DNA of 64,000 bases. It comes from an uncultured Thermus sp. Its GTDB lineage: Bacteria; Deinococcota; Deinococci; Deinococcales; Thermaceae. The notes under the pieces were generated by a model. The model did not search any database and had not been told where the DNA came from. It saw nothing but the letters and a program-made list of their open reading frames with translations. The position numbers were made by a program, and so were the translations under genes. Location: positions 70,329 to 134,328 of the forward strand of contig CAMTVD010000004.1 in the NCBI GenBank assembly GCA_947085095.1, in the 5' to 3' direction. This document shows, piece by piece, positions 1 to 63,853 of this stretch; positions within the stretch are counted from its first letter, which is position 1; each line of letters opens with the position of its first letter.

Positions 1-504
1 CCCCCCCACCTCGTGGGCCAGGACCTCCAGAAAACCCCGGTCGGGGTGGGGGGCGCAGGCCTCCAGGTGGCCCCTGAGCCCGGGAAGCTCCACCCTGAGG
101 CCCTCGCACTCGCTCCCCGCCCTTACCCCCTCCACCTCCAGGGCCAAGGGATGGCCCAGACTCTCTTCCAGGACCCGGGCTACGCGGTGGACGGCCTCCT
201 CGAGGTTCTGGCTCTCCAAGGCCTCGCGGAATACCCGCCCCGCTGCCAAAAGCCTCCGGTTAGCCTCCTCCAAGGCCCTCTCCGCCCGGGCCCTTTCCAG
301 CACCTCTTGGGCGATCCACTCCAAGACGGCATAGGTGACCAGAGGCCCCACCAGGCCGTAAAAGCCCAGGCGGAACCAAAGGGCAAAGTCCTGGTGGCGG
401 TAGGGCAGAAGGGCCAGCTCAACGACCACCACCACCAGGGCGATGGCCGGGGGGAGGAGGCGTTGCGCCAAGCGCACCAGGAGAAGCAGGTTCTGGCTAG
501 CCAT
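1..504 (-). CDS. Partial CDS running off the window: membrane protein with 2 TM helices, a coiled coil and a GAF-like region, probably a sensor kinase N-terminus
   Basis: Manual translation from ATG 504, overlapping the trmJ stop: MASQNLLLLVRLAQRLLPPAIALVVVVVELALL...FYGLVGPLVTYAVLEWIAQEVLERARAERALEEANRRL..., open to base 1. Not in the ORF track. Kinase domain not visible. Confidence 0.55.
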   Translation of the reverse strand, partial: MASQNLLLLVRLAQRLLPPAIALVVVVVELALLPYRHQDFALWFRLGFYGLVGPLVTYAVLEWIAQEVLERARAERALEEANRRLLAAGRVFREALESQNLEEAVHRVARVLEESLGHPLALEVEGVRAGSECEGLRVELPGLRGHLEACAPHPDRGFLEVLAHEVGG

Positions 505-1255
505 CTCTCTTCCCCATCTGGTAGCGGCTTTGGTGGAGGAGGCCCCTTAGCATCTGGACCTCCCCGGGGCTGAGCCTGGCCTTGTGGAAAATGCGCCTCA
601 AGCGGCGCATGGCGTAGGGAAAGCGCTTCTCGTCGGTGAAGCCGATCTCCAAGATGTAGCGCCCCAGGTCGGCAAAGAGGCCCTCGAGGGCCGAGGTCTC
701 CGCCAACACCTCCTTCCCTACCCCAGGCCCAGCCGCCGAAGCAGAACCCTCCTGCAACGCCGCCCGGAAGAGCTCGTAGGCGAAGACGACCACCGCCTGG
801 GCCAGGTTCAAGGAGGGTTGCTCCGGGGCGGTGGGGATGGTGCCGATCACGTGGGCCAGGTCCAGCTCCTCGTTGGTGAGGCCAAAAGTCTCCCGGCCGA
901 AGACCAAGGCCACCTCCCCCTTCACCGGCAGGACATGCCCGGGCACCTCCCAAACGGGAACCACCGGGGCCGGGTAAAGCTCCCGGGGTCTCCCCGTGGT
1001 GGCCACCACCAGGCGCACCCCGGTCAAGGCCTCCCTTAGATTCCCCACGGCCACCGCCTGGTCCAGGACCTCCTCCGCATGCACCGCAACCCAGTAGGCC
1101 TCCCTGGCCCAGGGGGGGCCCACACGGGAAGAGGGGTTGACCACGTACAGTCGGGAAAGCCCAAAGTTGCGCATGGCCCGGGCCACCGCTCCCAGGTTCA
1201 TGGGCTCCTGGGGCTCCACCAGCACCACCCGCACGCGATCCAGAACCCCCTTCAT
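497..1255 (-). CDS. trmJ: TrmJ/LasT-family SPOUT RNA methyltransferase
   Basis: Motifs VVLVEPQEPMNLGAVARAMRNFG, ALVFGRETFGL and SLNLAQAV. Start at ATG 1255 overlaps the PBP stop. Confidence 0.85.
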   Translation of the reverse strand: MKGVLDRVRVVLVEPQEPMNLGAVARAMRNFGLSRLYVVNPSSRVGPPWAREAYWVAVHAEEVLDQAVAVGNLREALTGVRLVVATTGRPRELYPAPVVPVWEVPGHVLPVKGEVALVFGRETFGLTNEELDLAHVIGTIPTAPEQPSLNLAQAVVVFAYELFRAALQEGSASAAGPGVGKEVLAETSALEGLFADLGRYILEIGFTDEKRFPYAMRRLRRIFHKARLSPGEVQMLRGLLHQSRYQMGKRDG

Positions 1256-3357
1256 GGCCTCTCCTCCGAAGGGGCCTCGGGGACGGCCTCCGCCCCGGGG
1301 GTAGCCGGGGGAGGCTCGGCAGAAGGCGCTTCCAAAGGCGGTGGCGGCGGCACAGGCACTCCCCTGGCGGGGAAGGCCATCTCTATCCCGTTGGGGGAGA
1401 GGTAGCCCGAAACCAGGTCCACCCGCGCCTTGACCAGACCCGGGGGCAGGGGGATATCCCCGGCGGGCCGGCCCCTGAGGGCCTCGGCCACAAAGTCCCG
1501 CCAGATGGGAGGGTTCACCACCGAGCTGGAGGGCTCCCGCCCCCCCAGGCGCAAGGGACGGTTGTCGTCCCGCCCCACCCAGACCACGGCGGAAAGCCCC
1601 CTGGTCACTCCGGCGAACCACAGGTCCCGGGCCTCGTTGGTGGTGCCGGTCTTGCCCCCCACCACCCTCCCGGGAACGCGGGCCCTCTTGGCAAGCCCCT
1701 TCTCCCCCAGGTCGTACACGTAGCCCTTGAGGAGATCCCAGCCCTGGTAGGCCACCAGGGGGTCAAAGAGGCGGCGGCGCTCCGGGGTGGCGCGGTAAAG
1801 CACCTGTCCCCTTGCGTCCTCCACCCGCTCCACGAAGATGGGAGCCACCCGGTACCCCCCGTTCACAAAGGCGGCATAGGCGGCGGCCAGGTCTATGGGG
1901 GTGACGGATGCCCCCCCGATGGCGATGGCCAGGGTGGGGTAGCGCACGGCGAAGCCCGCCTGGGCGAGCTTTTCCGCCACCTTCTCCACCCCCACCTGGT
2001 GGGCGGTGTACACGGCGGGCAGGTTCAGGGAGAGGTCCAGGGCGTAGCGCACGGTAACGCTCTGGTTTAGGAAGGTTCCCGAGAAGTTCTTGGGCCGCCA
2101 GATCCCCCCGGGCTGGCTCGGGTCGGAGAACTCTAGGGGGCGGTCGGGCACCAGGGTGGCCTGGGTCCAGCCCGCCTCAAAGGCGGTGGCGTAGACAAAG
2201 GGCTTCACCGCGCTCCCTGGGTTCCGAAGAGCCCGGGTGGCGCGGTTGTACTCATCGCCCTCCCGCCTCACCCCCCCCACCAGGGCCAGAACCTCCCCGG
2301 TCTCCGGGTCCAGGGCCACGAGGGCGAGGTCGGCCCCCTCCGGCAGGCGTGCCCTCGAGGCCGCGGCCTCCGCCGCCCGCTGCATGGCGGGGTCCAGGGT
2401 GGTGTAGACCCTCAAGCCCCCCTCCCCGTAGACCTTTTCCTTGCCGAAGCGGGCCTCGAGGAACCGCCGCACCTCCAGCACAAAGTGCGGGGCCATGCGG
2501 GGGTCCAGCGGTCGCACCAGCCGGGCCTCGGGGTCCGCAAGCTCGGCTTCCAGGAGGTTTCCTTCCCCGTCATAGCGGACCCGCCAGCCCCGGGGGGCGA
2601 GGGGCTCCCGCCAGGCAGCTTCGGCCACCTCCCGGCTCACCCAGCCCTCGGCCACCATCTCCTCCAGTAGGCGGCGCATCCGCTCCCGCACCCCCTTGAG
2701 GTCCCCGTAGCGGGCGTTGGGGGCGGGCACCAAGGAGGCCAAGTAGAGCCCCTCGGCCAGGGTCAGGGCCCCGGGGTCCTTGCCAAAGTAGGCCTCGGCC
2801 GCCCCCCCAAGCCCCACCGCGTTCCCTCCCCAGGGCACCACGTTCAGGTACATCTCCAGGATCTCTTCCTTGGTGTAGCGGCGCTCCAGCTCCAGGGCCA
2901 GGGCCCACTCCTTGACCTTGCGCTCCAGGGTCCTCTCCTGGGCCAGGTCCTTGAGGAGGGTGTTCTTGATGACCTGGGTGGTGATGGTGCTTCCCCCCTG
3001 GAGATCCCCCCGGAGCACGGCGTAGAGGGCCCCAAAGAGGCGGAGGAAGTCCACCCCGTAGTGCTGGAAATAGCGGCGGTCCTCAGAGAAGACCAGGGCG
3101 GCCAAGGCGGCGGGGGACACCTGGGAAAGGCGCACCAGGCCCCGGTGGATGGCCCGCCCCTCCTCCACGCTGGCCAGCTGGGCCAGCAAAGACCCGTCCC
3201 TGGCGAAAAGGGTGGAGGTGGCGGTGAGGCGCAGGCGGTCCAGCTGGGAAAGGTCCGGCAGGCCCCGGGTGTAGGCGTAGGCGATGTAACCCAAGGCCAG
3301 CCCTACTCCCAGAAGGAGAGCGAGGAGCAGGAGGGCCAAAAAGCGAAGCCAGCGCAC
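1252..3357 (-). CDS. Class A penicillin-binding protein (transglycosylase/transpeptidase, PBP1A-like)
   Basis: N-terminal TM, SEDRRYFQH and GGSTITTQ transglycosylase motifs, SAVK (SxxK), SLN and KTG. GTG 3357 chosen because TAAACT lies 7 nt upstream. Confidence 0.9.
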   Translation of the reverse strand: MRWLRFLALLLLALLLGVGLALGYIAYAYTRGLPDLSQLDRLRLTATSTLFARDGSLLAQLASVEEGRAIHRGLVRLSQVSPAALAALVFSEDRRYFQHYGVDFLRLFGALYAVLRGDLQGGSTITTQVIKNTLLKDLAQERTLERKVKEWALALELERRYTKEEILEMYLNVVPWGGNAVGLGGAAEAYFGKDPGALTLAEGLYLASLVPAPNARYGDLKGVRERMRRLLEEMVAEGWVSREVAEAAWREPLAPRGWRVRYDGEGNLLEAELADPEARLVRPLDPRMAPHFVLEVRRFLEARFGKEKVYGEGGLRVYTTLDPAMQRAAEAAASRARLPEGADLALVALDPETGEVLALVGGVRREGDEYNRATRALRNPGSAVKPFVYATAFEAGWTQATLVPDRPLEFSDPSQPGGIWRPKNFSGTFLNQSVTVRYALDLSLNLPAVYTAHQVGVEKVAEKLAQAGFAVRYPTLAIAIGGASVTPIDLAAAYAAFVNGGYRVAPIFVERVEDARGQVLYRATPERRRLFDPLVAYQGWDLLKGYVYDLGEKGLAKRARVPGRVVGGKTGTTNEARDLWFAGVTRGLSAVVWVGRDDNRPLRLGGREPSSSVVNPPIWRDFVAEALRGRPAGDIPLPPGLVKARVDLVSGYLSPNGIEMAFPARGVPVPPPPPLEAPSAEPPPATPGAEAVPEAPSEERP

Positions 3358-3385
3358 GGCCTTCAGTTTACCCAAGAGCGGGGCT

Positions 3386-3748
3386 TCAGGAAGCTAAGCC
3401 CAGAAAGCGGTAGAGCTTCTCCCGGGTAAGGGGTTTCTCTAGGGCCACAACCCGCACCACCTCCGCGGTGGTGCGGAGCTTTTCCGTAGGGGGGATGAGC
3501 ACGGCCAAGGGCACCGACTTCAAGCGCTTCACGTGGCGGATGCGGGCGGCCACGGCAAAAGGGTCCACGTCCAGATCCTCGTCCAAAAGGATGTGGCGCG
3601 GCGTGTTCTCCACCAACCAAAAAAGGCCTTCCCGGGCCGAGTCAAAGTAACGAACGGGAATCCCCCGTTCCGCAAGGACGAGCTCCGTATAGGCCCTGAG
3701 GGCCTCGTTGCGGCTTAATAAGAGGAGGCCTGGATACTCCGCCGCCAC
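3386..3748 (-). CDS. Stand-alone receiver-like (CheY-fold) protein, atypical
   Basis: ILLDEDL and ALEKPL motifs. TAAACT lies 6 nt before the GTG. Confidence 0.6.
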   Translation of the reverse strand: MAAEYPGLLLLSRNEALRAYTELVLAERGIPVRYFDSAREGLFWLVENTPRHILLDEDLDVDPFAVAARIRHVKRLKSVPLAVLIPPTEKLRTTAEVVRVVALEKPLTREKLYRFLGLAS

Positions 3749-3791
3749 GGGGCCAGTTTACGGGGGCTTTGCGAAAAAGGCGTGAAAAAAC

Positions 3792-3865
3792 TGGCTGGGG
3801 CGCGTGGACTCGAACCACGACCGGCGGATCCAAAGTCCGCTGTCCTGCCATTAGACGACGCCCCA
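3792..3865 (-). tRNA. tRNA-Gln (TTG)
   Basis: Minus strand reads TGGGGCG...GCGGA-CTTTGGA-TCCGC...GGTTCGAGTCC...CGCCCCA-GCCA. Cloverleaf with anticodon TTG and encoded CCA. Confidence 0.97.
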
Positions 3866-3878
3866 GCGGCCAAGGGAG

Positions 3879-3907
3879 ATTGTAGGGCAAAAGGGGCTTG
3901 TCGTCAA
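3879..3907 (-). promoter_or_regulatory. Sigma70-type promoter of tRNA-Gln
   Basis: TTGACG (3902-3907), 17 bp spacer, TACAAT (3879-3884). The -35 overlaps the ychF stop. Confidence 0.75.
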
Positions 3908-5010
3908 ACGTGGAAGAGGATATAGAGGACATCCCCGTCCTGGACCTCGTAGTCCTTGCCCTCGAGGCGCACCCAGCCCCGCTCCTTGGCCCTGGCCCAC
4001 CCCCCGGCCTCCACCAGCCTGTCCCAGGGGATGACCTCGGCCCGGATAAAGCCCCTCTCCATGTCCGAGTGGATCTCCCCCGCGGCCTGGGGGGCCTTGG
4101 TGCCCCGCCGCACCGTCCAGGCCCGCACCTCCTTCTCCCCAGCGGTGAAGAAGGTGAGGAGGTCCAAGGCCCGGTAGCCCGCCCGGGCCAGGCGCTTTAG
4201 GCCGCTTTCCTTCAGGCCATAGGCAGCGAGGAGCTCCCTGGCCTCCTCCTCGGAAAGCTCGGCAAGCTCCGCCTCCAGCCTGGCGGAGACCACCACCACC
4301 TCACCCCCTTCCCCCTCCGCCCTCGCCCGAAGGGCGGCCACGTGGGGGTTTCCCGCCCCCTCGGGCAGGTCCTCCTCGGCCACGTTGGCCACGTAGATCA
4401 CCGGCTTGGCGGTGAGGAGAGGGGTCTCCTTGAGGAGGCGGCGGGCCTCCTCGGAAAGGGGAAAGGTACGGGCAGGCTTCCCCTCGCTCAGGTGGGCGTG
4501 GAGGGCCTCGGCAGCCTCCAGAAGGGGCGCCACCTCCCGGTTGGCCCGGGCCTCCTTCCTCAGGCGTTCTAGGCGCCTCTCCCAGGAGGCCAGATCCGCC
4601 AGGAGAAGCTCGGTTTCCACCACCTCCACGTCCTCTAAAGGGTCCACCCGGCCCATCACGTGGACCACGTTGGGGTCGGGAAAGCAGCGCACCACGTGGG
4701 CGATGGCCGCCACCTCGCGGATGTGGGCCAGGAACTGGTTGCCAAGCCCCTCCCCCTTGTGGGCCCCCTTCACCAGGCCGGCGATGTCCACGAACTCCAC
4801 GTGGGTGGGTACCACCGGGGGTAGGCGCTCCCCCTTGGCAAAGGTCTTCTGCAGGGCGTAAAGGCGGGGGTCCTCCAGGGCCACCACCCCCACGTTCTTG
4901 TCAATGGTGGCGAAGGGGTAGTTGGCGGCCAGGGCCCCGGCCCGGGTGAGGGCGTTGAACAGGGTGGATTTGCCCACGTTGGGTAGACCGACGATTCCTA
5001 CGGCAAGCAT
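3904..5010 (-). CDS. ychF: Redox-regulated ATPase YchF (Obg family)
   Basis: GIVGLPNVGKST, NYPFATI, DIAGLVKGA and a C-terminal TGS domain. Confidence 0.96.
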   Translation of the reverse strand: MLAVGIVGLPNVGKSTLFNALTRAGALAANYPFATIDKNVGVVALEDPRLYALQKTFAKGERLPPVVPTHVEFVDIAGLVKGAHKGEGLGNQFLAHIREVAAIAHVVRCFPDPNVVHVMGRVDPLEDVEVVETELLLADLASWERRLERLRKEARANREVAPLLEAAEALHAHLSEGKPARTFPLSEEARRLLKETPLLTAKPVIYVANVAEEDLPEGAGNPHVAALRARAEGEGGEVVVVSARLEAELAELSEEEARELLAAYGLKESGLKRLARAGYRALDLLTFFTAGEKEVRAWTVRRGTKAPQAAGEIHSDMERGFIRAEVIPWDRLVEAGGWARAKERGWVRLEGKDYEVQDGDVLYILFHV

Positions 5011-5106
5011 CTTGACCTCAAAAAAAGCCCCATTCGGGGCTTCCCCTTATCCTAGCACAAGGCCGCCTAGCCTTCTCAGCCTGGCGGCCCCTATGATGGT
5101 CAAGGT

Positions 5107-5766
5107 ATGGACCTGGCCGCCCACATTGACCACACCCTCCTCAAGCCCACCGCCACCCCGGAAGAAGTCTTGAAGGCGGCGGAAGAGGCCCTGGAATACG
5201 GCTTTTTCGGCCTCTGCATCCCCCCCTCTTACGTGGGCCTGGTACGTCAGGCCTACCCCCACGCCCCCTTCCGCCTGGTGACCGTGGTGGGCTTCCCCCT
5301 GGGCTACCAGGAGAAAGAGGTGAAGGCCCTCGAGGCCGCCCTGGCCTTCGCCCGGGGCGCGGAGGAGGTGGACATGGTCCTCCACCTGGGCCGGGCCAAG
5401 GCGGGAGACCTGGCCTATCTGGAGGCGGAGGTCCAGGCGGTGCGCCAGGCGGTGCCCAAGGCGGTCCTTAAGGTCATCCTGGAAACAGGATACTTTTCCG
5501 AGGAGGAGGTCCGGAGCATGGCCGAGGCGGCCATCCGGGGTGGGGCGGACTTCCTCAAGACCTCCACGGGCTTTGGTCCTAGAGGGGCCAGCCCAGAGGA
5601 CGTGGCCCTCCTCCTGGAGGTGGCCCGGGGCCGGGCCCAGGTGAAGGCGGCCGGGGGCATCCGGGACCGGGAGACGGCCCTCAGGTTTCTGGAAATGGGG
5701 GCCACCCGCCTCGGCACCTCCAGCGGCGTGGCCCTGGTGCGAGGGAAGGAAGGGCATGGGTACTAA
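5107..5766 (+). CDS. deoC: Deoxyribose-phosphate aldolase
   Basis: IDHTLLKP, VGFPLG, LKVILET, FLKTSTGF, VKAAGGIR and RLGTS. Confidence 0.96.
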   Translation: MDLAAHIDHTLLKPTATPEEVLKAAEEALEYGFFGLCIPPSYVGLVRQAYPHAPFRLVTVVGFPLGYQEKEVKALEAALAFARGAEEVDMVLHLGRAKAGDLAYLEAEVQAVRQAVPKAVLKVILETGYFSEEEVRSMAEAAIRGGADFLKTSTGFGPRGASPEDVALLLEVARGRAQVKAAGGIRDRETALRFLEMGATRLGTSSGVALVRGKEGHGY

Positions 5767-6895: not shown

Positions 6896-7434
6896 TCCTG
6901 GCCTCGGGGAGCCCCCGGCGGAAGGCCCTCCTCGAGGCCCTGGGCTACCCCCTCTATCTAAAGCCCCCGGGGGTGGCGGAGGAGGACCTGGGGCTACCCC
7001 CCAAGGCCCTGGCCCAGGCCCTGGCCCGCAGAAAGGGGGAAAGCGTGGCCGGGGCCTGGGTCCTGGCCGCCGACACCGTGGTGGACCTGGACGGGAAGGT
7101 CCTGGGCAAGCCCAAGGACCGGGAGGAAAACCGCCATTTCCTGCGCCTCCTCTCGGGGCGGGACCACCTGGTGCACACCGCCCTCTACCTGCGCACCCCC
7201 TTAGACCTGGTGGAGGAGGTGCACACCGCCAAGGTGCGCTTCCGCCCCCTAAGCGAGGAGGAGATCCTCTGGTACGTGAATAGCGGGGAGGGCCTGGACA
7301 AAGCGGGGGGCTACGGGGCCCAGGGTCTGGGCATGGCCCTTATAGAGAGGGTGGAAGGGGACTTCTACACCGTGGTGGGCCTTCCCGTCTCCCGGGTCTT
7401 CGCCCTCCTCTGGGAAAGGGGGTTCCGCCCGTGA
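6871..7434 (+). CDS. maf: Maf-family nucleoside triphosphate pyrophosphatase
   Basis: [20 protein letters not shown] and DKAGGYG. Start at ATG 6871. Confidence 0.92.
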
Positions 7435-10389: not shown

Positions 10390-10398
10390 AATGGGGCC

Positions 10399-11353: not shown

Positions 11354-11625
11354 TGTTCCTCCGAATACCGCTCCGCAAGAAGGCGTACCGGCTCCAGCCG
11401 CGCGGTGCGGGCGTAGCTGTAACCCCGCAGGTAGTGCTCCTCCTTCTTGGTCAGCTGGTAAAGGCGCAGGTAGGCCACCGCCAGAAGTCCATCCCGCTCC
11501 CGACCAGGGGGCAGGCGGTGGAGGAGGCGGACGATCTCCCTCAGACGGCCCTCCCCGTAGGCCTCGAGGGGCGTCTCCCGCAAGGCCCGGGCCAGGTCGG
11601 CTAGCGTCTCCCCCAACCCCCGCAC
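11350..11625 (-). CDS. Hypothetical helical protein
   Basis: 91-aa ORF with typical codon usage. TAGACT lies 7 nt upstream and the stop overlaps the next start. Confidence 0.65.
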
Positions 11626-31259: not shown

Positions 31260-31874
31260 ATGCCGTACCCGTTCAAGCTACCCGAGCTAGGCTACCCCTA
31301 CGAGGCCCTCGAGCCCCACATTGACGCCAGGACCATGGAGATCCACCACCAGAAGCACCACGGGGCCTACGTCACCAACCTGAACGCCGCCCTGGAGAAA
31401 CACCCCTACCTGCAGGGGGTGGAGGTGGAAACCCTCCTCCGGCACCTCGCCGCCCTCCCCGCCGACATCCAGACCGCCGTGCGCAACAACGGGGGCGGGC
31501 ACCTGAACCACAGCCTCTTCTGGAAGCTCCTCACCCCCGGTGGGGCCCAGGAGCCCGTGGGGGAGCTGAAGAAGGCCATTGACGAGCAGTTTGGCGGCTT
31601 CGCCGCCCTCAAGGAGAAGCTCACCCAGGCGGCCATGGGCCGCTTCGGCTCCGGCTGGGCCTGGCTGGTCAAGGACCCCTTCGGCAAGCTCCACGTGCTC
31701 TCCACCGCCAACCAGGACAACCCGGTGATGGAGGGCTTCGCCCCCATCGTGGGCATTGACGTCTGGGAGCACGCCTACTACCTCAAGTACCAGAACCGCC
31801 GGGCGGACTACCTGCAGGCCATCTGGAACGTCCTCAACTGGGACGTGGCCGAGGAGATCTACAAGGGCGCCTGA
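31260..31874 (+). CDS. sodA: Mn superoxide dismutase
   Basis: [18 protein letters not shown] and DVWEHAYY. Start at ATG 31260 with a GGAGGT SD. Confidence 0.96.
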
Positions 31875-42609: not shown

Positions 42610-44814
42610 ATGAACAGGTACGACGATCGCGCCAGGCTGGTCTTTCACTACGCAAGGGAGGAGGGGAGCCGCTTAGGCCACTCCATGATCGGCCCAGAGC
42701 ACCTCCTCCTGGGCCTGATGCGCGAGGGGGGCACGGCGGCCCGCATCCTCCAGGAGTACGGGGCGAGCCTCGAGGCCATGCGCCGCATGGTGGAGGAGCT
42801 GGTGGGCCGCGGCGAGGGGAGCCGCACCGGGGAACCCCCCGCCATCACGCCCCGGGCGAGGCGGGTCATGGAGCTGGCCAGCGCCGAGGCCCGCAACATG
42901 GGGGCCCAGGTGATCGGCACCGAGCACATCCTCCTGGGCATCATCCGCGAGGGGGACGGGATCGCCTACCGCATCCTCACCCACTTCGCCAAGGACGTGG
43001 ACGCCATCCGCTGGCGCATCCTGGCCATGGCCGACAACCGGGAGCGGGAGAAGCCGGTGAACACCCCCTTCCTGGACGAGTACGGCCGCGACCTCACCAA
43101 GGAGGCCCGGGAGGGCAGGCTGGACCCAGTGATCGGCCGCCAAGAGGAGATCAACCGGGTGATCCAGATCCTGGCGCGGCGCACCAAGAACAACCCCGTC
43201 CTCATCGGGGACCCGGGGGTGGGCAAGACGGCCATCGTGGAGGGGCTGGCCCAGGCCATCGTGGAAGGGCGGGTCCCCCCCATCCTCAAGGGGGCCCGGG
43301 TGGTGGCCATAGACCTGGCCGGGGTGGTGGCGGGGACCAAGTACCGGGGCGAGTTTGAGGAGCGCCTGCGCCAGATCATAGAGGAGCTCAAGAATGCCAA
43401 GGTCATCGCCTTCATTGACGAGCTCCACACCCTGATCGGGGCCGGGGGGGCCGAGGGCACCCTGGACGCCGCCAACATCATGAAGCCTGCCCTGGCCCGG
43501 GGGGAGATCCAGGTGATCGGGGCCACCACCACCGGGGAGTACCACCGCTACATAGAGAAGGACGCCGCCCTGGAACGGCGCTTCCAGCCGGTGATCGTCC
43601 TGGAGCCTTCCCCGGAGGAAACCCTAGAGATCCTCAAGGGCCTCCGCCCCCGCTACGAGGCCCACCACGGGGTCATCATCCCCGACGAGGTCCTGGAGCT
43701 CTCGGTCAAGATCGGCATCCGCTCCCTCCCCGGGCGCAACTTCCCCGACAAGGCCATTGACCTCATCGACGAGGCGGCCAGCCGGGTCCGCCTCAACGCC
43801 TCTTTGGGCCTCCCCGTGGCCGAGGAGGAGGACGGCACCCCGGTGGTCACCCGGGAGGACATTGAGGCCGTGGTGGACTCCTGGGGCGGGATCTACAGCG
43901 ACGACAAGGACGACCAGAAGCTCATGCACCTGGAGGAGGAGCTCAGGAAGCGGGTGGTGGGCCAGGAGGAGGCCATCAAGGCCCTGGCCAGCGCCCTCCG
44001 CCGGGCCCGGGTGGGGCTTGGGGGGAGGACCCGGGTGGCCGCCAGCTTCCTCTTCGTGGGGCAAAGCGGGGTGGGCAAAACCCAGCTGGCCAAGGCCCTG
44101 GCCGAGGTCCTCTTCGGCTCGGAGCGGGCCCTCATCCGCTTTGACATGTCCGAGTTCCAGGAGCCCCACTCCATCTCCAAGCTGATCGGGGCCCCACCCG
44201 GTTATGTGGGCTACGAGCAGGGAGGCCGCCTCACCGAGGCCGTGCGGCGCCAGCCCTTCAGCGTGGTCCTCCTGGACGAGATAGAGAAGGCCCACCCCGA
44301 CATCTACAACACCTTCCTCCAGGTCCTGGACGAGGGCCGCCTCACCGACGGTATGGGGCGCACCGTGGACTTCCGCCGGGTGATCCTCATCATGACCTCC
44401 AACACCGGCTACAACGTGGGCCCGGCCATCGGCTTCACCTCCAGAGAGGTGGACACGGACTCCCCCCTCAAGAGCCTCTTCACCCCCGAGTTCCTGGACC
44501 GCCTGGACGAGGTCATCCGCTTCCGCCCCCTTACCGAGGAGGAGCTGGTCCAGGTGGCCCGGCTCATGCTGGAGGAAATCCAGAAGGAGTTGAAGGGCCG
44601 GGACATAGAGGTCACCTTCGCCCCCGAGGTGGCCCGCTTCGTGGTGGAGCAGGCCCCCAAGACGGGGAGCGCCCGGGCCATCCGCGGGGTCATCCGCGAG
44701 CGCATAGAGGACCCCCTCTCCCTGGCCCTCCTGAAGAAGCCCACGGGCCGCCTCTACGTCAACGTGGAGGAGGGCAACCTGGCCTTCCACGAGGTGGAGG
44801 AGTTCCTGGTCTGA
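42610..44814 (+). CDS. clpC: ATP-dependent Clp protease ATPase subunit (ClpC/ClpA-like)
   Basis: Two Clp-N repeats, Walker A motifs GDPGVGKT and GQSGVGKT, and an IGF loop. Confidence 0.88.
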
Positions 44815-52288: not shown

Positions 52289-52303
52289 AGGCCACCTCGG
52301 GGG

Positions 52304-53164
52304 CTATTTTACGCTCCGGAGGTTGACGAGGAGCACCCCGAGGAGGGCCAGCCCTCCGCCCAGAAAGGAGAGCGGGGAAGGCACCTCGGCAAGCCACAGG
52401 TAGGCGATGAGGATAGCCAGAACCGGGGAGAGGTAGAGGAAGGAGGAAAGCCTCGAGGCGGGGGTGCGAGAAAGGGCGTAGGTCCAGGTGAGGTAGGCCA
52501 GGGCCCCGGGGAAAACCCCCAGGTAAAGGGCGGAAAGGAGGGCGGGCCCAGGGGCCTTTAGGAGGGCCCCGGGAAGGCCGGGGAGGAAAACGAGGAGGGG
52601 CAGGGTGCCCAGGAGGAGGGTGTAGACGGTGACCTCCTCGCTCCGGTAGCGGGCGAAAAGGGGCTTTTGCAAGACGAAGTAGAAGGAGGTGGCGAGGGCG
52701 GAGAGGAGGATGAGGAAGGCCCCCGGGCTAAAAGCAAGCCCTCCCCCCTCGCCAAAGGCGATGAGGAAGGAGCCCAGAAGGGCCAGGGCGAAGCCCACGA
52801 CCCCCAAAGCCCCAAGCCTCTCCTTGAGGAGGAAGTGGGAGAGGATGGCGGTGAACACCGGCCCCGTGGCGATGAGGAGGCTCGCCGCCCCCGCGCTCAC
52901 GGTGAGCTGCCCAAAGACCAAGGCCACGTGGTAGACGGTGATGCCCAGAAGCCCGAGGAGGAAGAGCCTGGGCAGGTCCTCCCGCTTGGGGGGCCTAAGC
53001 CCCCGCACCCTGGCGTAAAGGAGGAGGATGGCGCCCGCCACCAGGAAGCGCAGGAGAACCAGATGCCCCGGGGAAAGGCCCATAAGCCCCGCCCGGATGG
53101 CGGCGAAGGCGCTGGCCCAAAGGAGGATGGTGACCAGGGCGGCGGTAAGAGCCCTAGGTTCCAT
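52304..53164 (-). CDS. DMT/EamA family transporter
   Basis: 10-TM two-repeat architecture with LWASAF and LRF motifs. Confidence 0.88.
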   Translation of the reverse strand: MEPRALTAALVTILLWASAFAAIRAGLMGLSPGHLVLLRFLVAGAILLLYARVRGLRPPKREDLPRLFLLGLLGITVYHVALVFGQLTVSAGAASLLIATGPVFTAILSHFLLKERLGALGVVGFALALLGSFLIAFGEGGGLAFSPGAFLILLSALATSFYFVLQKPLFARYRSEEVTVYTLLLGTLPLLVFLPGLPGALLKAPGPALLSALYLGVFPGALAYLTWTYALSRTPASRLSSFLYLSPVLAILIAYLWLAEVPSPLSFLGGGLALLGVLLVNLRSVK

Positions 53165-55578: not shown

Positions 55579-55602
55579 AGGGCTAAGGGTATCATGGGGA
55601 GC

Positions 55603-57903: not shown

Positions 57904-57945
57904 GGCCGCCCCCGCCATGAACCCTTGTGATCCGCGAAAGGCCCC

Positions 57946-58725
57946 ATGATGCAGGTCCTCCCCCACTCCCTCCTCCCCGCCTTCTTCTCCCCCGGAGGGG
58001 CCTCGAGGGCCAAGGCTCTCCAGGACTACCTCCTTTCCCTCACCCCCGCCTACACCCCCTACGCCCCCCTCCCGGTGGTGCGCCTCTTCCTCCTCTCCGA
58101 GAAGGACTGGCGGGCAAGGCTCCCCTACCCCTATGGCCTCCCCTTCCAGCACGCAGGCCCGGAGGGCCTGGCCCTCTACGCCCCCCTCACCTACCCGGAG
58201 AGGCTTCTCCACCGCCTCAGGGAAGCCCTTCTTCCCCTGGGACCTCCCCCTGGGGAACTCCCCGCCTTCCTGGACCTCAACCTGGGCCACGAGTACGCCC
58301 ACGCCCTGCAGGTGGCCTGGGGGCTCCGCACGAGGGCGAGGTGGCTGGACGAGTTCCTGGCCAACTACCTCTTCCTCCTGGGGCTTAGGGAAAAGCGCCC
58401 CAAGCTGGCCCGGGACCTCCTCGGCTGGAGCCAGTACCTGGCCCGCCTGAACCCCGAGAAAAAGAGCCTCTCCCTCTACGAAAGAAGAAGGGGCAACCTG
58501 GAAAGCGCCCTCTGGTTCCAGGCCCACTTCACCCTGAAGGCCTGGGAGATCCTGGAAAAGGACGGGGACCGCCTCCTGAAAAGCTTTCTGGCGGCGGCCC
58601 CCCTGGACCGCAGGAAAGGCCACCGCCTTCTTTTAGAGCTCTACCCGGATCTGAAGACCTGGTTCGCCGCCTTCGGCCTCAAGGCCGCACCCTGGGAGGC
58701 GTCTTCCCCTCGGCCAGAGACCTGA
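57946..58725 (+). CDS. Hypothetical zincin-like protein (HExxH)
   Basis: LGHEYAHALQ followed by WLDEFLANY. Confidence 0.65.
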   Translation: MMQVLPHSLLPAFFSPGGASRAKALQDYLLSLTPAYTPYAPLPVVRLFLLSEKDWRARLPYPYGLPFQHAGPEGLALYAPLTYPERLLHRLREALLPLGPPPGELPAFLDLNLGHEYAHALQVAWGLRTRARWLDEFLANYLFLLGLREKRPKLARDLLGWSQYLARLNPEKKSLSLYERRRGNLESALWFQAHFTLKAWEILEKDGDRLLKSFLAAAPLDRRKGHRLLLELYPDLKTWFAAFGLKAAPWEASSPRPET

Positions 58726-59668
58726 GCCAGTCCAGGAAGCTCACCTCCCCCACCCTCAGGGTGTAGAGCTCGGGCCGGGGGAGGATGCAGTGCTGGCTCC
58801 CCGGGGCCAGGTAGAAGGCGTAGTTCCCCACCTGGGCCGGGGCGAGGACCGCCTCCTGGGCCCTCAGGGCCCACTCCCGGGCCGTGGCCTCGGAGGGGGA
58901 CCTCTCCCCCTTCATGAGGCCGTAGAAGAAGATCTGGGTGCCGTCCAGGACCGTGGTGTACTGGGAAAAGACCGCCTTGGGGTAGGCCCTGGCCAGGGCC
59001 AGGTAGACCTCGGAAACCCTGGGCCTATCGGAAAGCCCGGGGACCTCGGGGAAGCGGGGGTTCCAGCGGGTGTAGCCGGGGAAGTTATCCGTGGAAACCC
59101 CCACCCCAGCATCCCCGCAGACGGCCACCTGGGCGTTTTTGTAGGTGGAAAGGACCTTATCCGCCCAGAAGATGGCCCCGTAGGCCCCGGCGCTGCACCC
59201 GGTGACGAAGACCCGCTCCGCCTGGGTATGGTTGCGGAATACGTACTCCAGGGCCGCCAGGGCGTTCCTGGCCCCCTGGTGGTGCACCTTGAAGCCGCCG
59301 TAGTCCACGGTGGCCCGGCCCACGTGCAGGTCCCCGGTGCAGTAGGGCACGAAGACGTGGGTCCAGCCGAAGAAGGGGTTGGCCACGCTCGCGCGGTTGT
59401 AGATGCCCTGGGCCAGGAGGAGCTCCTGCACGTCCACCCGCTTGCGGTAGGTCTGGCTTTGGGGACCGCAGGTGGCGGCGTCCCAGCAGGCCCCGCCTCC
59501 CTGAAAGTCTAGCACCACCTTCTTGGGGTCCCCGGGGCTCACGTAAAAGCGGTAGGGGGAGCCGTCCGAGCAGACCCCACCCGGCACCTCCACGGCCTTC
59601 CAGAACGTCTCCAGACCCTGGGCCACGGCCAGGGCAAGCACCACCGCCAAGGCAATAAGCCGCTTCAT
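58679..59668 (-). CDS. Secreted pectin-acetylesterase/Notum-family hydrolase
   Basis: Signal peptide, CSDGS, FQGGGACW, VPYCTGDLH, GCSAG nucleophile and a C-terminal HC. Confidence 0.85.
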   Translation of the reverse strand: MKRLIALAVVLALAVAQGLETFWKAVEVPGGVCSDGSPYRFYVSPGDPKKVVLDFQGGGACWDAATCGPQSQTYRKRVDVQELLLAQGIYNRASVANPFFGWTHVFVPYCTGDLHVGRATVDYGGFKVHHQGARNALAALEYVFRNHTQAERVFVTGCSAGAYGAIFWADKVLSTYKNAQVAVCGDAGVGVSTDNFPGYTRWNPRFPEVPGLSDRPRVSEVYLALARAYPKAVFSQYTTVLDGTQIFFYGLMKGERSPSEATAREWALRAQEAVLAPAQVGNYAFYLAPGSQHCILPRPELYTLRVGEVSFLDWLRSLAEGKTPPRVRP

Positions 59669-59687
59669 CCTTTCACCTCCAAGGGGC

Positions 59688-59716
59688 ATTCTATAGGCAT
59701 TCTTGCACCCGGTCAA
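59688..59716 (-). promoter_or_regulatory. Promoter of the esterase gene
   Basis: TTGACC (59711-59716), 17 bp spacer, TAGAAT (59688-59693). SD GGAGGTGA downstream. Confidence 0.7.
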
Positions 59717-59889
59717 GGAAAGCGGCGAACCCCCTCCCCCAGAACGGGGAAGAGGAGGGTCATGTTGGGCAGAAAGCGAAGGCGTCCCCCCCTTCCCCCG
59801 GAGGGAGCAGGAGCAGGCAGGCAATGGAAGTAAGCGCAGAAACTGGAAGAAATGCGGTGTACAGAGGGCTAACGCCCCTTGAGTCCTCT

Positions 59890-62754
59890 TCAAGCCCACT
59901 CCACCCGGCTCCCCGAGGGGTGCTTGCGCACCAAAAGACGGGCTGGGAGCCTTTCCGCCAGGGCCTCCACATGGGTCACGATGCCCACCAGCCGCCCCCG
60001 GGTGGGGAGGGACTCCAAGACCCCCGCCACACCCTCCAGGGCCTCGGGGTCCAGGGTGCCGAAGCCCTCGTCCAGGAAAAGCGCCCCCAGCCGCCCCCGG
60101 GAGAGCTCCTCGGAGAGGGCCAGGGCCAGGGAGAGGCTCGCCAGGAAGCTCTCCCCCCCGGAAAGGGTCTTCACCGGGCGCTCCACCTCGGTCCAGAGGT
60201 CCAGGACCCTGTACTCGTCCCCCCAGGCCCGGAAGCGGTACCGCCCCCCAGAAAGGGTGTAGAGGAGCTCATCCGCCCGCTCCACCAGGCTCCTCTGCCT
60301 CAGGCCCAGGACGTAGGCGGGGAAGCGGTCTTGTTGCAGGTCCAGAGCGAGCTTCTCCCAGATGGCCACCTCCTGCACCGCCTCGGCCAGCCTGGCCTCC
60401 AGCTCCCGGCGACGCCTCAGGGCCTCCCTGAGCTCCGCCGCCTTGGCCTCCAAAACGGCCCCCTCCTCCCCCAGGGCCTTGAGGCGCCCCAGGACCTCCT
60501 CCAGGGCGGTTTGCACCTTCTTGACCTGGGCCTCGGCCTCGAGGAGGGTGAGGGGGGGAAGGGGAGGGAGGGCCTTGAGGAGGGCCTCCACCTCCTTGGC
60601 CTCCTCCTCGTGGCGGCGAAGCCTCTCCTCCAGGGCCCGCCTGGCCTCGGGGGAGAGGGCGTGGGCCTTGGCCTCGGCCTCGGGGAGGAGGCCTTCCACC
60701 CGCGCTCGGGCTTCGGCAAGGGCCTTGACCTGCTCCGCCTCCTGGGCCCTTAGGGCGGAGACCTCCCGGTAAAGCCTCTCCATCTCCTCCCGAAGCCTCC
60801 GCTCCTCCTTCTCCCTGGCCTCCAGGGCCCTGACCTCCTCCTCCAGGCTCCTGAGGTAAGGGGCCACCCCCAAGCCTCCGGTCCTTTCCTGGAGGTGGCG
60901 GTAGAGCCCGGCGCTCAGGGCGGCCTTCTCCTCCCGGAGGCGCCCAAGCCGCTCCTCCACCGCCTCCAAGGAGGCCTCCCCCGCCTGCGCCCGGAGGCGG
61001 GCCTCGTCCTCCCGGAGCTGGTTGACCTCGGCCTCCAGACTCTTTACCCCTCCCTGGAGCTCCTTGTAGATGTCCCGAAGCGCCTGGAGGGCCTCCTCGG
61101 CCTCCTTCAGGGCCTTTTCCAGGGCCTCCGAGTCCCCGGGGATGGGCTCGGCGGCCAGGGCGGCGAGGTTCTTCTCCAGGGTCCGCTTTTCCGCCAGGCC
61201 CTCCCCCCGCTTCCCCTGGACCCGGCGCAGGGCCTCCTCCAGCCCCCGCCTCTTCTCCTCCAGGTCAGGGAGGTCGGGGCGCGGGGGGAGGCGGTGGACC
61301 ACCCCGCCGCACAGAGGGCAGGGCTCGCCCACCTCCAGGAGGTCGTGGTAGGCCAGGAGGCCCAGGCGCCTCTCCTCCCGCCTCAGGGCCTCCAGGGCCT
61401 CCTGGAGCCCCGCCTCTTCCTTTTCCAAGGAGAGAAGCTCTTCCTCCAGGGCCCGCAGGCGCTCCTGGAGGCGGTGGGCCTCCGCCCCCTGCAGACGGGC
61501 CTTGAGGCCCTCCACCTCCTTCCGCCTCTCCCGGCCCGCCTCCTCGGTATGAGAAAGCCTTTGCCGCGTTTCCTCCAGCTGGGCCTCCTTGGCCTTAAGG
61601 CGCCTCCGCACCTCCTCCAGCTGGGAAAGCCCATCCCGGAGCCGCTCAAGCCGCGCCTCCTCGGCCAGGACCTCTTCCAGGCGCTCGGGGGCGAAGCGGG
61701 GGGCGGGGTGGTCCTGCAGGCCCACCCGGCGGAAGAGGGCCTCGAGGCCCTTCAGCTCCTGGGCCCTTAGGAGGGCGTCCCGGGCCTCCTTCAGGGCGGT
61801 GGGGTCAAAGGCCAGGGCCCCCAGGGCCTCCTCCAGCCCCTTGAGGCGGCCCTCGGCCTCCTGGAGGCGGCTCCTTGTAGCGGCGAGGGCCTTCTCCTTC
61901 CGCCTCAGGTCCTCCCAAAGGGGCAGGGCCCTCTCCGCCTCCTCGCCCAGGGCCAGGCGGTGGCGGATTCCCTCCATCTCCTTCGCCTCCGCCACAAGCC
62001 TCGCCCGCCTGGCCTCCAGGAGGGCCTTTTTGCGGAGGCCCTCCAAAGCCTCCTCGGCTTCCCTCTTCCCGGCCTCCAGGCGGGACTTCTCCCCCTCCAG
62101 CCGGGAAAGCTCCTTCCCCAGGGCCAAACGCCTCGCCTCGAGGGCCTCCAAGGCCTCGGGCGTGGCCTCGGCAAGGCCCAAAAGCTCCCCCTCGAGGCGG
62201 CTTTTCTCCTCCTGTAGGCGGGCCTTGGCGCTAGCCGCCCTCTCCCTGGCCCGCTCCAGGCGGGAAAGCCCGAAGAGGTCCATGAGAAGCCCCCGCCTCT
62301 CCCTGGCCTCCCCCTTGAGGAAGCGGTCAAACTCCCCCTGGGGCAGGAGGAGGGCCCGGGTGAAGGCCTCGTAGGAGAGGCCCAGAATCTCCTCAATGGC
62401 CTCGTTGAGGCGGTCCAGGGTCTCCAAGGGGATAAGCCTCTCCCCTTCCGTGAGGTCAAAAAGCCGCCCCTCGCTCTTCCTGCCCCGCACCCTATCCACC
62501 CGGTAGAGGCGGCTTCCCACCTGGAAGGTGAGGCGGACCCGGGCCTCCTGAACCCCTGGGTGGACCAGCTCCTTGACGCTCCTCCCCACCCGGGGCACCA
62601 GGCCGTAAAGGGCGAAGGCCATGGCGTCCAGAAGGGTGCTCTTGCCGCTTCCCGTGGGGCCGGTGATGGCGAAGAGCTCCACGTCGGAGAAGTCCACCCC
62701 CTGCCTTTCCCGGTAGGGGCCGAACCCCTCAAGCTCCAGCCTTAAGGGCCTCAT
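59890..62754 (-). CDS. sbcC: SMC-family ATPase SbcC (Rad50-like)
   Basis: GPTGSGKST, LPQGEF, CPLC zinc hook, LSGGE and FLDEGFG. Confidence 0.94.
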   Translation of the reverse strand: MRPLRLELEGFGPYRERQGVDFSDVELFAITGPTGSGKSTLLDAMAFALYGLVPRVGRSVKELVHPGVQEARVRLTFQVGSRLYRVDRVRGRKSEGRLFDLTEGERLIPLETLDRLNEAIEEILGLSYEAFTRALLLPQGEFDRFLKGEARERRGLLMDLFGLSRLERARERAASAKARLQEEKSRLEGELLGLAEATPEALEALEARRLALGKELSRLEGEKSRLEAGKREAEEALEGLRKKALLEARRARLVAEAKEMEGIRHRLALGEEAERALPLWEDLRRKEKALAATRSRLQEAEGRLKGLEEALGALAFDPTALKEARDALLRAQELKGLEALFRRVGLQDHPAPRFAPERLEEVLAEEARLERLRDGLSQLEEVRRRLKAKEAQLEETRQRLSHTEEAGRERRKEVEGLKARLQGAEAHRLQERLRALEEELLSLEKEEAGLQEALEALRREERRLGLLAYHDLLEVGEPCPLCGGVVHRLPPRPDLPDLEEKRRGLEEALRRVQGKRGEGLAEKRTLEKNLAALAAEPIPGDSEALEKALKEAEEALQALRDIYKELQGGVKSLEAEVNQLREDEARLRAQAGEASLEAVEERLGRLREEKAALSAGLYRHLQERTGGLGVAPYLRSLEEEVRALEAREKEERRLREEMERLYREVSALRAQEAEQVKALAEARARVEGLLPEAEAKAHALSPEARRALEERLRRHEEEAKEVEALLKALPPLPPLTLLEAEAQVKKVQTALEEVLGRLKALGEEGAVLEAKAAELREALRRRRELEARLAEAVQEVAIWEKLALDLQQDRFPAYVLGLRQRSLVERADELLYTLSGGRYRFRAWGDEYRVLDLWTEVERPVKTLSGGESFLASLSLALALSEELSRGRLGALFLDEGFGTLDPEALEGVAGVLESLPTRGRLVGIVTHVEALAERLPARLLVRKHPSGSRVEWA

Positions 62755-63853
62755 CCTCCACCTCCTCCAGCACCTGGGCGAAGCGCATGAGAAGGGCCTC
62801 CTCCTTCCTTCCCTTTTCCTCCAGGTACCGGGCGTAGGCCTCCACGAAGCCGAGCTCCGGCCCGGGGCCGTTCCCGTCCGGAGGCGGGACCTCCCCCGCC
62901 GCCTCTATGGCCAGGAGGCGGGGCAGGGCCTGGTAGAGCCGCTCCTTCTCCTGAGGGGAAAGCCTTCCCTCCACCACCAGGCGCAGGTAGCCGGGGAAGC
63001 GCTCCATCTCGGAAAACCTTCCATCAAGATCCTCGGGTTTGAGGCGGAAGGTCTTTAGGGGCCTCCCCCAGCGCTCCCTTAGGGGGTGGACCCTGGGGGG
63101 CCCGGAGGGGGGAAGCTCCACCAAGAGGGCCCCCCGCTCCGCCTCCTCCCCCTCCCCGAAGTCCAGCTGGACGAGGCTCCCCGGGTACCAGGCCAGGGGG
63201 GCCTCGGAAACCTGCTGCTGGCGATGGATGTGGCCCAGGGCCAGGTACCGGGCGGAGAGGGGCAGGGCCGAAGGGGGGACGGCGTAGCTTCCCGAGAGGT
63301 GGAAAAAGAACTCCCCGCCCCCGGGCCGGACCCCCTCGAGGGCGAAGTGCCCCAGCATCAGGGGGCTTTCCAGGTTGGCCAAAACCCGGCGCATGGCCTC
63401 GGCGTAGGTGCGGTGACGGTCCTCCGCCTCCTGGAGGACCCGCTTTACCAAGACCCGCTCGGACACGAAGGGGAGAAGGGCCGCCCCAAGCCCCCCCACC
63501 TCCACCACCCCGCCTTCTTCCCGGAAAAGGAGCCGGCCCCGCACCTCGGCCCCCGCCAGGGCGAAGAGGGGGGAAAGGGCCTCCAAGCGCTCCTTGGGGT
63601 CGTGGTTCCCGGCGATGACCAAGGCGGGGACCCCAAGCTCCCTCAGGCGGAGGAAAAAGGCCACCGCGTGCCCCTCGGCCTCGGCGGAGACCTGGGGGCG
63701 GTCAAAAAGGTCCCCCGAGACCACCACCAGGTCCACCCGCTCCTTCTCCACGATCTGCAAAAGGGCCTTCAGGGCCTCCCCGATCTCCGGGGTCCGGTCC
63801 ACGCCCTTCAACACCTTTCCCAAATGCCAGTCCGCGGTATGCAATAAGCGCAC
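62729..63853 (-). CDS. sbcD: Nuclease SbcD (Mre11-like)
   Basis: HTADWHLG, GDLFD, GNHD and LGHIH. Confidence 0.94.
   Translation of the reverse strand: MRLLHTADWHLGKVLKGVDRTPEIGEALKALLQIVEKERVDLVVVSGDLFDRPQVSAEAEGHAVAFFLRLRELGVPALVIAGNHDPKERLEALSPLFALAGAEVRGRLLFREEGGVVEVGGLGAALLPFVSERVLVKRVLQEAEDRHRTYAEAMRRVLANLESPLMLGHFALEGVRPGGGEFFFHLSGSYAVPPSALPLSARYLALGHIHRQQQVSEAPLAWYPGSLVQLDFGEGEEAERGALLVELPPSGPPRVHPLRERWGRPLKTFRLKPEDLDGRFSEMERFPGYLRLVVEGRLSPQEKERLYQALPRLLAIEAAGEVPPPDGNGPGPELGFVEAYARYLEEKGRKEEALLMRFAQVLEEVEDEALKAGA

Follow-up and report, generated by a model that had tools for sequence, protein, structure and literature searches.

The highly iterated palindrome (HIP) of cyanobacteria, HIP1 (GCGATCGC), is an octamer found about once per kb, far above Markov expectation and in all reading frames, with a core that is the target of methylases often lacking an endonuclease, flanks that vary by lineage and no agreed function, as set out in two studies (Elhai 2015, PMC4390886; Xu et al. 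2018, PMC5861425). In the wider lineage that includes Thermus, a methylome survey (Blow et al. 2016, PMC4752239, Tables S3 and S4) records active Type II methylases that produce N6-methyladenine (m6A) at CTCGAG and for which no cognate endonuclease is given; they modify 94.6% of sites in Marinithermus hydrothermalis, 94.1% in Meiothermus chliarophilus and 99.5% in M. ruber. A further relevant system is TaqI, whose palindromic target, TCGA, would be expected to be scarce wherever the endonuclease acts. All three bear on CCTCGAGG, an octamer iterated throughout a 64,000-nucleotide stretch of DNA from an uncultured Thermus sp. (the window; G000:C4:70329-134328), the genome of which, G000, comprises 2.08 Mb in 41 contigs (67.5% GC, 93% complete). 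CCTCGAGG shares with HIP1 the traits listed above, the methylase target at its core being a probable one, and with the Marinithermus and Meiothermus methylases the CTCGAG core, in which the methylated adenine is positioned as for M.TaqI, although the enzymes may be of different families. Full-text literature searches combining Thermus with octamer, CTCGAG or iterated palindromes retrieved only cloning primers and no published description of the pattern. Neither Thermus nor CTCGAG is mentioned in the available portions of the two HIP papers; the main text of the methylome survey names no Thermus or Meiothermus, gives CTCGAG for Nocardia only and leaves site abundance in these organisms unmentioned, and its Tables S3 and S4 include no Thermus strain.

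A reading of the window made from its letters alone (the sequence-only reading) had counted about 58 copies of CCTCGAGG, and this proved exact at every position it gave, from 198 to 63334. The 58 copies span 198..63341, carry no strand, being palindromic, and start at 198, 682, 2353, 2454, 3960, 5328, 6025, 6589, 6930, 7697, 8605, 9159, 9843, 11562, 14067, 15122, 15864, 16140, 16746, 17425, 19401, 20036, 20494, 21511, 22485, 23106, 25738, 29086, 29923, 30307, 32491, 33618, 34421, 36066, 36606, 38249, 38776, 40883, 42768, 45741, 46205, 46733, 48288, 49184, 51748, 52054, 52451, 54810, 55692, 55848, 57135, 57636, 58001, 60537, 61740, 62136, 62190 and 63334. Dinucleotide-preserving shuffles gave 4.8 ± 1.9 copies (maximum 12), with none of 100 reaching 58. 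TCGA as a whole occurs 61 times in the window versus an expected 140 ± 9.8, all 100 shuffles having 61 or more, and since 58 of the 61 are octamers, exactly three lie outside it.

These three are at 3810, 31309 and 43766; their number had been given correctly by the sequence-only reading, which placed the first near 3820. The TCGA at 3810..3813 (minus strand) is within tRNA-Gln (3792-3865, minus) and is probably kept by RNA function. GTTCGAAT (10 copies) and ATTCGAAC (7), among the commonest non-octamer TCGA contexts genome-wide, match what we take to be the tRNA T-loop consensus, this tRNA-Gln being the single tRNA compared. The second lies in CCTCGAGC (31307..31314, no strand assigned), a one-flank variant of the mildest-depleted class, for which GCTCGAGG and CCTCGAGC together total 101 versus 663 expected in ORFs (open reading frames) genome-wide under synonymous shuffles. 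The third, at 43766..43769 on the plus strand, is ATC GAC (Ile-Asp) within ATT GAC CTC ATC GAC GAG GCG, a sequence that appears to encode a conserved stretch, Ile-Asp-Leu-Ile-Asp-Glu-Ala. As for the octamers, a codon-usage model assigned most of those in the window to the Leu-Glu frame (C-CTC-GAG-G). The copies at 2353..2360 and 52451..52458, both on the minus strand and both singled out earlier as lying outside that frame, indeed read xCC TCG AGG (Ser-Arg), with model margins of 0.46 and 0.42 respectively, and the copy at 58001..58008 (plus strand) is probably in the same frame with a weaker margin of 0.16; GC periodicity was concordant in all three.

Over the whole of G000, 1576 of the 1932 TCGA occurrences are within CCTCGAGG (759 per Mb, or about 1 per 1.3 kb), and the next contexts, GCTCGAGG and CCTCGAGC, account for only 56 and 52. 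CCTCGAGG is the commonest palindromic octamer of the genome (runner-up CCCCGGGG, 812) and exceeds its order-3 Markov expectation (162) 9.7-fold, so that the genome-wide 8-mer comparison bears out what the window suggested and, as a palindromic octamer many-fold over Markov expectation at 759 per Mb, it belongs by abundance to the HIP class. We then asked how much of this is due to coding, using ORFs defined by an in-house GC3 rule. In a set of 1596 stop-to-stop ORFs, within-ORF shuffling of synonymous codons gave 734 ± 20 octamers versus the 1333 observed, and 7856 TCGA versus 1574, or about 7120 versus 241 outside the octamer. Frame counts from this set (49 CCT CGA GG and 56 xCC TCG AGG) were discarded, GC periodicity and the codon-usage model having shown them to be inflated by overlapping or mis-framed ORFs; the model found 7 CCT CGA GG sites and 1349 Leu-Glu sites among 1392 classified octamers, with 184 unclear. 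In a high-confidence set of 788 long, strongly periodic ORFs (1.02 Mb), octamers in the CCT CGA GG, xCC TCG AGG and Leu-Glu frames numbered 8, 21 and 775 versus 0.4 ± 0.7, 4.6 ± 2.0 and 480 ± 21 expected. The excess in the two non-Leu-Glu frames thus persists, with smaller absolute numbers than in the first set, and because all three frames are enriched the octamer excess is real at the DNA level, as had been proposed from the window. Non-octamer TCGA in the same ORFs was about 35-fold depleted (134 versus about 4655).

The depletion extends to every TCGA-bearing neighbour of the octamer, all being 7- to 100-fold under-represented in G000 ORFs (GTCGAC, 1 versus 472; CTCGAC, 3 versus 1040), whereas CCTTGAGG and CCTCAAGG, neighbours in which the core is broken, are not depleted, with an observed-to-expected ratio (O/E) of 1.17. 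TCGA is therefore scarce in all flanking contexts other than that of the octamer, and codon choice avoids it, both as the sequence-only reading had held: CTC makes up 0.45 of Leu codons in C-Leu-GAG-G (n=2717) and 0.09 in C-Leu-G-G with any other G-starting codon (n=5690), 0.00–0.07 before GAG with other flanks, and 0.00–0.01 before GAA, GAC and GAT. In the same codon table, C..G flanks surround 46% of Leu-GAG pairs but about 92% of CTC-GAG pairs, and the flank restriction thereby survives a dicodon-level null as the excess itself survives amino-acid-preserving shuffles. In regions without a stop-free span of at least 300 nt, a small sample of 14.8 kb in total, we found 3 octamers versus 0.44 expected, along with 7 other TCGA. 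As a separate observation on codon choice, CTC is rare before any G-starting codon in G000 and G009 (0.07–0.09) and not in another Thermus genome, G031 (0.31–0.34).

A profile search identified the TaqI_C methylase in each of the 32 genomes of the genus but the RE_TaqI endonuclease family in nine (hereafter R+), R.TaqI being absent from the other 23 (R-) and no match to it being found in G000 (93% complete). The G000 M.TaqI orthologue, of 408 aa, is encoded at C14:250703-251926 (minus strand), aligns over residues 6-405 with the solved M.TaqI (E 1.8e-170) and retains the NPPY motif; the link to a TaqI-type system that the sequence-only reading had drawn is thereby substantiated. In the five genomes G000, G009, G011, G023 and G031, the methylase gene comes immediately after kbl, and in the latter four the order is kbl, M, R (where present), small ORF and gyrB; in two of these that are R-, G009 and G023, the place of R is taken by a gap of roughly 440 bp. 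Downstream of M in G000 (C14:243000-250722; locus L050 1-7722), an Hma-type defence system, with an HmaB DUF1156 methylase and an HmaC ATPase with HEPN domain, together with a Schlafen/AlbA_2 protein, stands in place of the R.TaqI/gyrB arrangement seen in other Thermus. In a quick tree, Thermus methylases group together in two clades, of which clade A is entirely R- and includes G000 and the other contains all R+ genomes plus some R-. A search of 201 genomes of the phylum yielded close M.TaqI orthologues from beyond Thermus in just the sister genus g6 (2/2) and G093, and none in G191 and G032. A PF01555 methylase (C18:77387-78298) was considered as determinant and rejected, as it is present in 21/29 Thermus and missing from G023, which has a strong pattern (21/23 TCGA in the octamer).

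The depth of TCGA depletion follows the endonuclease. As purge index we took the whole-genome count of ATCGAG plus CTCGAT (O/E 1.1 in unpurged G093), which is 34–143 (median 61) in the nine R+ genomes, 42–753 (median 322) in the 23 R- genomes and, for the family's other genera, about 490–4400 (mostly 600–900 per Mb). The octamer is not reduced by R (median 1768 copies in R+ versus 1585 in R- genomes), and in 400-kb samples it accounted for 315 of 379 TCGA in an R+ genome and 318 of 777 in an R- one. Loci with TaqI-like methylases in Armatimonadota, Chloroflexota and other phyla behave alike with regard to TCGA, having 67 versus 418 expected (O/E 0.16) in 23 loci with R (115 kb) and 361 versus 541 (0.67) in 26 without, and none of the 67 survivors is CTCGAG or the octamer. 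Phages of Thermus also avoid TCGA: P23-45 (84 kb) has 41 versus 162–258 expected (O/E 0.16–0.25) and 2 octamers versus 2.2 expected, the latter numbers being small, and the first 50 kb of phiYS40 (GC 32.5%) has 29 versus 71–100 and no octamer. Thus, Thermus has a target under its codon-aware expectation, R and M in the lineage, scarcity in host and phage alike and a depth of avoidance that follows R, and the genus-wide purge of TCGA is tied to R.TaqI. It departs from ordinary restriction avoidance in that the depletion, about 30-fold, depends on context, with one flank context spared and abundant, which such avoidance does not predict.

The spared context obeys a symmetric rule. Before GAG in G000, the CTC share of CTN codons is 0.485 with C..G flanks (n=2531), 0.085 with C..C, 0.060 with G..G and 0.010 with G..C, corresponding to odds penalties of about 10, 15 and 93 for C..C, G..G and both wrong flanks, so that the two penalties roughly multiply. 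Survival of TCGA falls about tenfold per wrong flank, and the form that survives is CTCGAG flanked CC..GG. Octamers are moreover spaced more evenly than chance. Compared with 1000 random subsets of the 2531 possible sites in G000, there were 24 octamer pairs closer than 100 bp versus 93.6 ± 8, 127 closer than 300 bp versus 252 ± 12, and 135 gaps longer than 3200 bp versus 169 ± 7, with no random subset matching the observed values; occupancy of possible sites rises from 0.125 with a neighbouring copy within 50 bp to 0.69 with the nearest at 800–1600 bp. Each of the five Thermus genomes tested shows such repulsion between copies, over distances up to about 400 bp: besides G000, the close-pair deficit (<300 bp) recurs at ratios of 0.43–0.72 in G031 (R+) and in G009, G029 and G010 (R-), and the repulsion is still present in G029 despite other TCGA being back at 150 per 100 kb. 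The 8-bp flank rule and copy repulsion in Thermus hence outlast the loss of R. The same spacing test revealed no close-pair repulsion in the non-Thermus genomes G191, G093 and G032. Between G000 and two species at about 81% identity, 35–43% of octamers are conserved in place, compared with 28–32% for any 8-nt window and 24–39% for the control CCTGGAGG; the usual alternative state at orthologous positions is CCTGGAGG or CCTCCAGG, a change between CTC and CTG.

Raw counts would make the octamer a feature of the family. All 32 genomes of the genus have 1241–2174 copies, and counts are high across the family and parts of the phylum, being low (2–165) in one large genus of a sister family. A family-wide octamer was nonetheless rejected, because TCGA is unavoided in the non-Thermus DNA sampled (eight genomes from five families or genera of the order, plus two from genera g4 and g6, most at 14.5–400 kb rather than as whole genomes) and the octamer is there one context of many, which makes raw counts misleading. 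Its share of TCGA is 41/295 in G093, 57/267 in G191, 15/222 in G032 and 13/476 in G147, whereas it is the single commonest TCGA context in each of 12 sampled Thermus genomes, from 20/20 down to 7/37. What the relatives do share is the core. Relative to synonymous shuffles, CTCGAG ranks first or second among over-represented hexamers in G093, G191 and G032, with TCGA not depleted in any of them, and its counts by frame are 481/7/23 versus 270/0.9/4.8 in G093, 194/8/23 versus 79/0.6/3.8 in G032 and 424/0/48 versus 113/0.1/9 in G191, where the excess is in two frames and the remaining one has an expectation of 0.1; frame figures from the first ORF-calling approach in relatives share the mis-framing weakness described for G000, the counts given here being those for long, strongly periodic ORFs. 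In G191, CTC occupies 318 of 328 possible C-CTN-GAG-G sites. Half-sites of CTCGAG are not enriched in the sampled relatives, and preferred flanks differ by lineage, Thermus and G191 favouring CC..GG, and G032 and G082 favouring GC..GC; a genome from the low-count genus has 0 CTCGAG versus 5 expected in 40 kb. The CTCGAG excess therefore predates the TCGA purge and stands independent of it, and the octamer, taken by the sequence-only reading as an element in itself, is better seen as the remainder of a more widely enriched core after TCGA was purged in Thermus.

Three side observations concern these relatives. G191, an extreme case with 6198 octamers in 3.8 Mb, encodes 92% of its Leu(CTN)-GAG pairs as CTCGAG, and 97% in C..G flanks, in the 240 kb sampled. 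Its most avoided hexamers are GGAGG-like (CTGGAG, with an O/E of 0.19, TGGAGG, GGAGGC and GGAGGG; range 0.19–0.36). Among relatives without general TCGA avoidance, several are strongly depleted of GTCGAC (O/E 0.16 in G093, 0.05 in G032, 0.28 in G191 and 0.07 in G068), unlike the samples from G147, G082 and G105.

Set against HIP1, then, the likeness proposed by the sequence-only reading stands in most respects, namely an iterated octamer, present in all frames, with a core that is the site of a methylase often without partner, and fails in others; the roles that reading suggested for it (methylation-directed repair, DNA uptake or recombination, nucleoid protein binding) are conjectural. Word, core and phylum differ, so CCTCGAGG is not HIP1 proper, and positional conservation is weak, whereas HIP1 sites are reported to be conserved. 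HIP1 carries 5-methylcytosine (m5C) at CGATCG, plus GATC methylation, as opposed to m6A at TCGA or CTCGAG in Thermus and its kin (probable, for the Thermus octamers). The repulsion in Thermus acts over hundreds of bp, compared with a HIP1 periodicity of 10–90 kb, the conservation and periodicity of HIP1 being as given by Xu et al. 2018 (PMC5861425). Finally, only in Thermus has a restriction system nearly abolished the core tetramer outside the octamer. A comparison may also be made with Dam methylation at GATC in Gammaproteobacteria, likewise a short palindrome that a partner-less methylase modifies (in Thermus, probably), distributed genome-wide so that any position might plausibly require a site no more than about 1 kb away; the Thermus word is of 8 bp rather than 4, its tetramer is itself avoided, and no MutH-type reader is known for it, none having been searched for.

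With a confidence slightly better than even, we regard CCTCGAGG as the residue of two superimposed genome-wide biases, an old CTCGAG preference and a TaqI-driven TCGA purge, with spaced copies that bring a saturating benefit or are subject to saturating drive. The first layer would be an old, frame-independent preference for CTCGAG common to sister genera and families of Thermus, and the second a purge of TCGA by the TaqI endonuclease across Thermus and, more weakly, one sister genus, the endonuclease gene having presumably since been lost from most Thermus genomes, G000 included. Where the layers overlap, TCGA would persist only as CTCGAG with C and G flanks, and multiplying flank penalties would be expected of a symmetric dimeric reader of 8 bp. 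About half of the possible Leu-Glu positions are occupied, with quick turnover between species through exchange of CTC and CTG. Half occupancy, fast turnover and neighbour avoidance together point to a benefit or drive that saturates, possibly at about one copy per kb. The octamers are likely to be N6-methylated by the M.TaqI orthologue, methylation may be what makes them useful, the mark, or a protein reading it, would confer the saturating benefit or drive, and a force of the same kind probably operates in Thermus and in its CTCGAG-rich relatives.

Several points weigh against this two-layer account. The small excess in positional conservation speaks against a position-specific function, and G031 shows a small excess in the Leu-Glu frame (145 versus 124; CTC share 0.40 versus a baseline of 0.31). 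The purge in G000, G007 and G013 is as deep as in R+ genomes although none of the three has a recognisable R.TaqI, and the R+/R- contrast is no formal test, because the genomes it covers are related and not independent. Specificity of the partner-less clade A methylase of G000 for the octamer is putative. Searches for PF01555, PF02384 and PF00145 found no methylase family common to the CTCGAG-rich genomes G191, G032, G093 and G082, the sets of which differ, and of the four strains published for the wider lineage, one, Meiothermus silvanus, is not shown with CTCGAG methylation in the tables of Blow et al. (2016, PMC4752239). Since GGAGG-like words are the most avoided in G191, avoidance of Shine-Dalgarno-like words may also add to its Leu-Glu-frame excess.

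Of the alternatives, a mere artefact of codon usage and amino-acid composition, by which abundant Leu-Glu would be written CTC GAG between C-ending and G-starting codons, is hardly credible. It accommodates the 1349 of 1392 classifiable octamers in the Leu-Glu frame and the 734 copies that synonymous shuffles already produce, but not the 1333 observed, the enrichment of all three frames in high-confidence ORFs, the symmetric dependence of CTC share on both flanks or the 30-fold depletion of TCGA elsewhere, and it is refuted by the tests of CTC share by flank and of the three frames. Almost as poorly placed is biased repair of the Vsr type, in which a cytosine methylase and a T:G mismatch endonuclease would turn near-cognate words into the octamer, like Dcm/Vsr at CCWGG in E. 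coli; a repair drive would fit a frame-independent excess and turnover without positional conservation. We consider it very improbable and close to refuted, as neither Vsr (PF03852) nor a C5 methylase (PF00145) was found in G000 (93% complete), the deamination neighbours CCTTGAGG and CCTCAAGG are, as noted, not depleted (O/E 1.17), the usual alternative CCTGGAGG differs by a C-G transversion rather than a transition, and the spacing effect is not predicted. A signal of self-recognition in DNA uptake or recombination, comparable to the uptake sequences of Haemophilus and Neisseria and accumulated by molecular drive among DNA-exchanging Thermus, is improbable, although much would suit it: one copy per 1.3 kb, spacing evener than chance with a saturating neighbour effect, rapid turnover at stable density, an identical word in all 32 genomes of the genus and just 2 copies in the 84-kb phage P23-45. 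The uptake sequences of Pasteurellaceae and Neisseriaceae are likewise dense, evenly spaced and shared within a DNA-exchanging clade. Known uptake sequences are to our knowledge not palindromes, as the Thermus word is, and its core is a conserved methylase's target, a feature superfluous to an uptake model; CTCGAG-enriched relatives, moreover, have no spacing effect. For Thermus, the literature knows of no specificity in uptake (PMC6561018), contrary to what such a signal would require.

More serious, and yet unlikely, is a pure by-product, in which TaqI purges TCGA, CCTCGAGG is the context where the methylase outpaces the endonuclease or cutting is poor, and its abundance reflects an inherited CTC-GAG codon-pair habit. 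This would account for a Thermus octamer density (36 per 40 kb, from the window) not above that of unpurged G093 (41) and G191 (57), for a lower occupancy of possible sites (0.32–0.58 versus 0.76 in G093 and 0.97 in G191), and for the small Leu-Glu-frame excess in G031 and the weak positional conservation already mentioned. It does not explain why flank rule and repulsion outlive R where other TCGA has returned: in G029, CTC share is 0.32 with C..G flanks versus 0–0.06 elsewhere, and there are 8 pairs closer than 300 bp versus 18.8 expected, with 150 other TCGA per 100 kb. Nor does it predict copy-to-copy repulsion, and the 5- to 20-fold enrichment in non-Leu-Glu frames and octamer counts that are no lower in R+ genomes also speak against it. 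Since none of the 67 TCGA surviving in R+ loci of other phyla is CTCGAG, the exemption seems not to be inherent in the enzyme family, although this is weak evidence, as composition differs. A spaced epigenetic mark is a possibility we hold tentatively: one N6-adenine-methylated CCTCGAGG per 1.2 kb or so, with a benefit saturated by a copy within a few hundred bases and a putative symmetric 8-bp reader, would serve to tell strands, or self from foreign, apart during repair or recombination, or would serve chromosome structure. If so, the mark withstood a purge of about 97% of all other TCGA, and the CTCGAG excess of Thermaceae and kin would represent the first HIP-type system beyond the cyanobacteria, with the added feature of a known methylase and a transformable, genetically tractable host.

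HIP1-like palindromes have gone unexplained for thirty years, partly because cyanobacteria carry several overlapping methylases. The HIP-like pattern in a second phylum offers one well-studied pair, M.TaqI/R.TaqI, with solved structures, together with natural variants with and without the endonuclease and an easily transformed host. The case indicates that restriction avoidance and motif upkeep can pull the same four bases in opposite directions, and its flank and spacing rules provide a quantitative read-out that any proposed reader protein must match. At a practical level, the distribution of TaqI and XhoI sites along Thermus DNA departs widely from randomness, and TCGA in non-octamer contexts flags recently acquired DNA. 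An example outside the window is G000:C41:1-8621, of 55% GC, which has 36 TCGA, none in an octamer, and no CCTCGAGG, and looks like recently acquired or foreign DNA.

Some further observations relate to restriction more generally. AATT is nearly absent from G000 ORFs (41 versus 424 in synonymous shuffles; O/E 0.10, the lowest of any tetramer) and from phage P23-45 (locus L158-L159; 1 versus 84 expected), and m6A methylases for AATT are listed for two Meiothermus strains in the tables of Blow et al. 2016 (PMC4752239), which suggests a second, equally strong restriction purge. Other tetramers under-represented in G000 relative to synonymous shuffles are CGCG (O/E 0.25), ACAG/CTGT (0.29) and CGAC/GTCG (0.30). 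At locus L191, from a metagenome-assembled genome (MAG) of Bacteroidia, an M.TaqI-like protein is nested in the R-linked Thermus clade of the quick tree, and the 6.2-kb locus contains 1 TCGA versus 15 expected, suggesting a TaqI system transferred out of Thermus or a binning error. Finally, at G000:C35:4864-6332 (locus L044 1402-2870), beside ispH, a BglII-family endonuclease (PF09195, E 8.7e-24) follows a PF01555 methylase that carries an SPPY motif, a pair that is, judging from its domains, a further predicted Type II system in G000.

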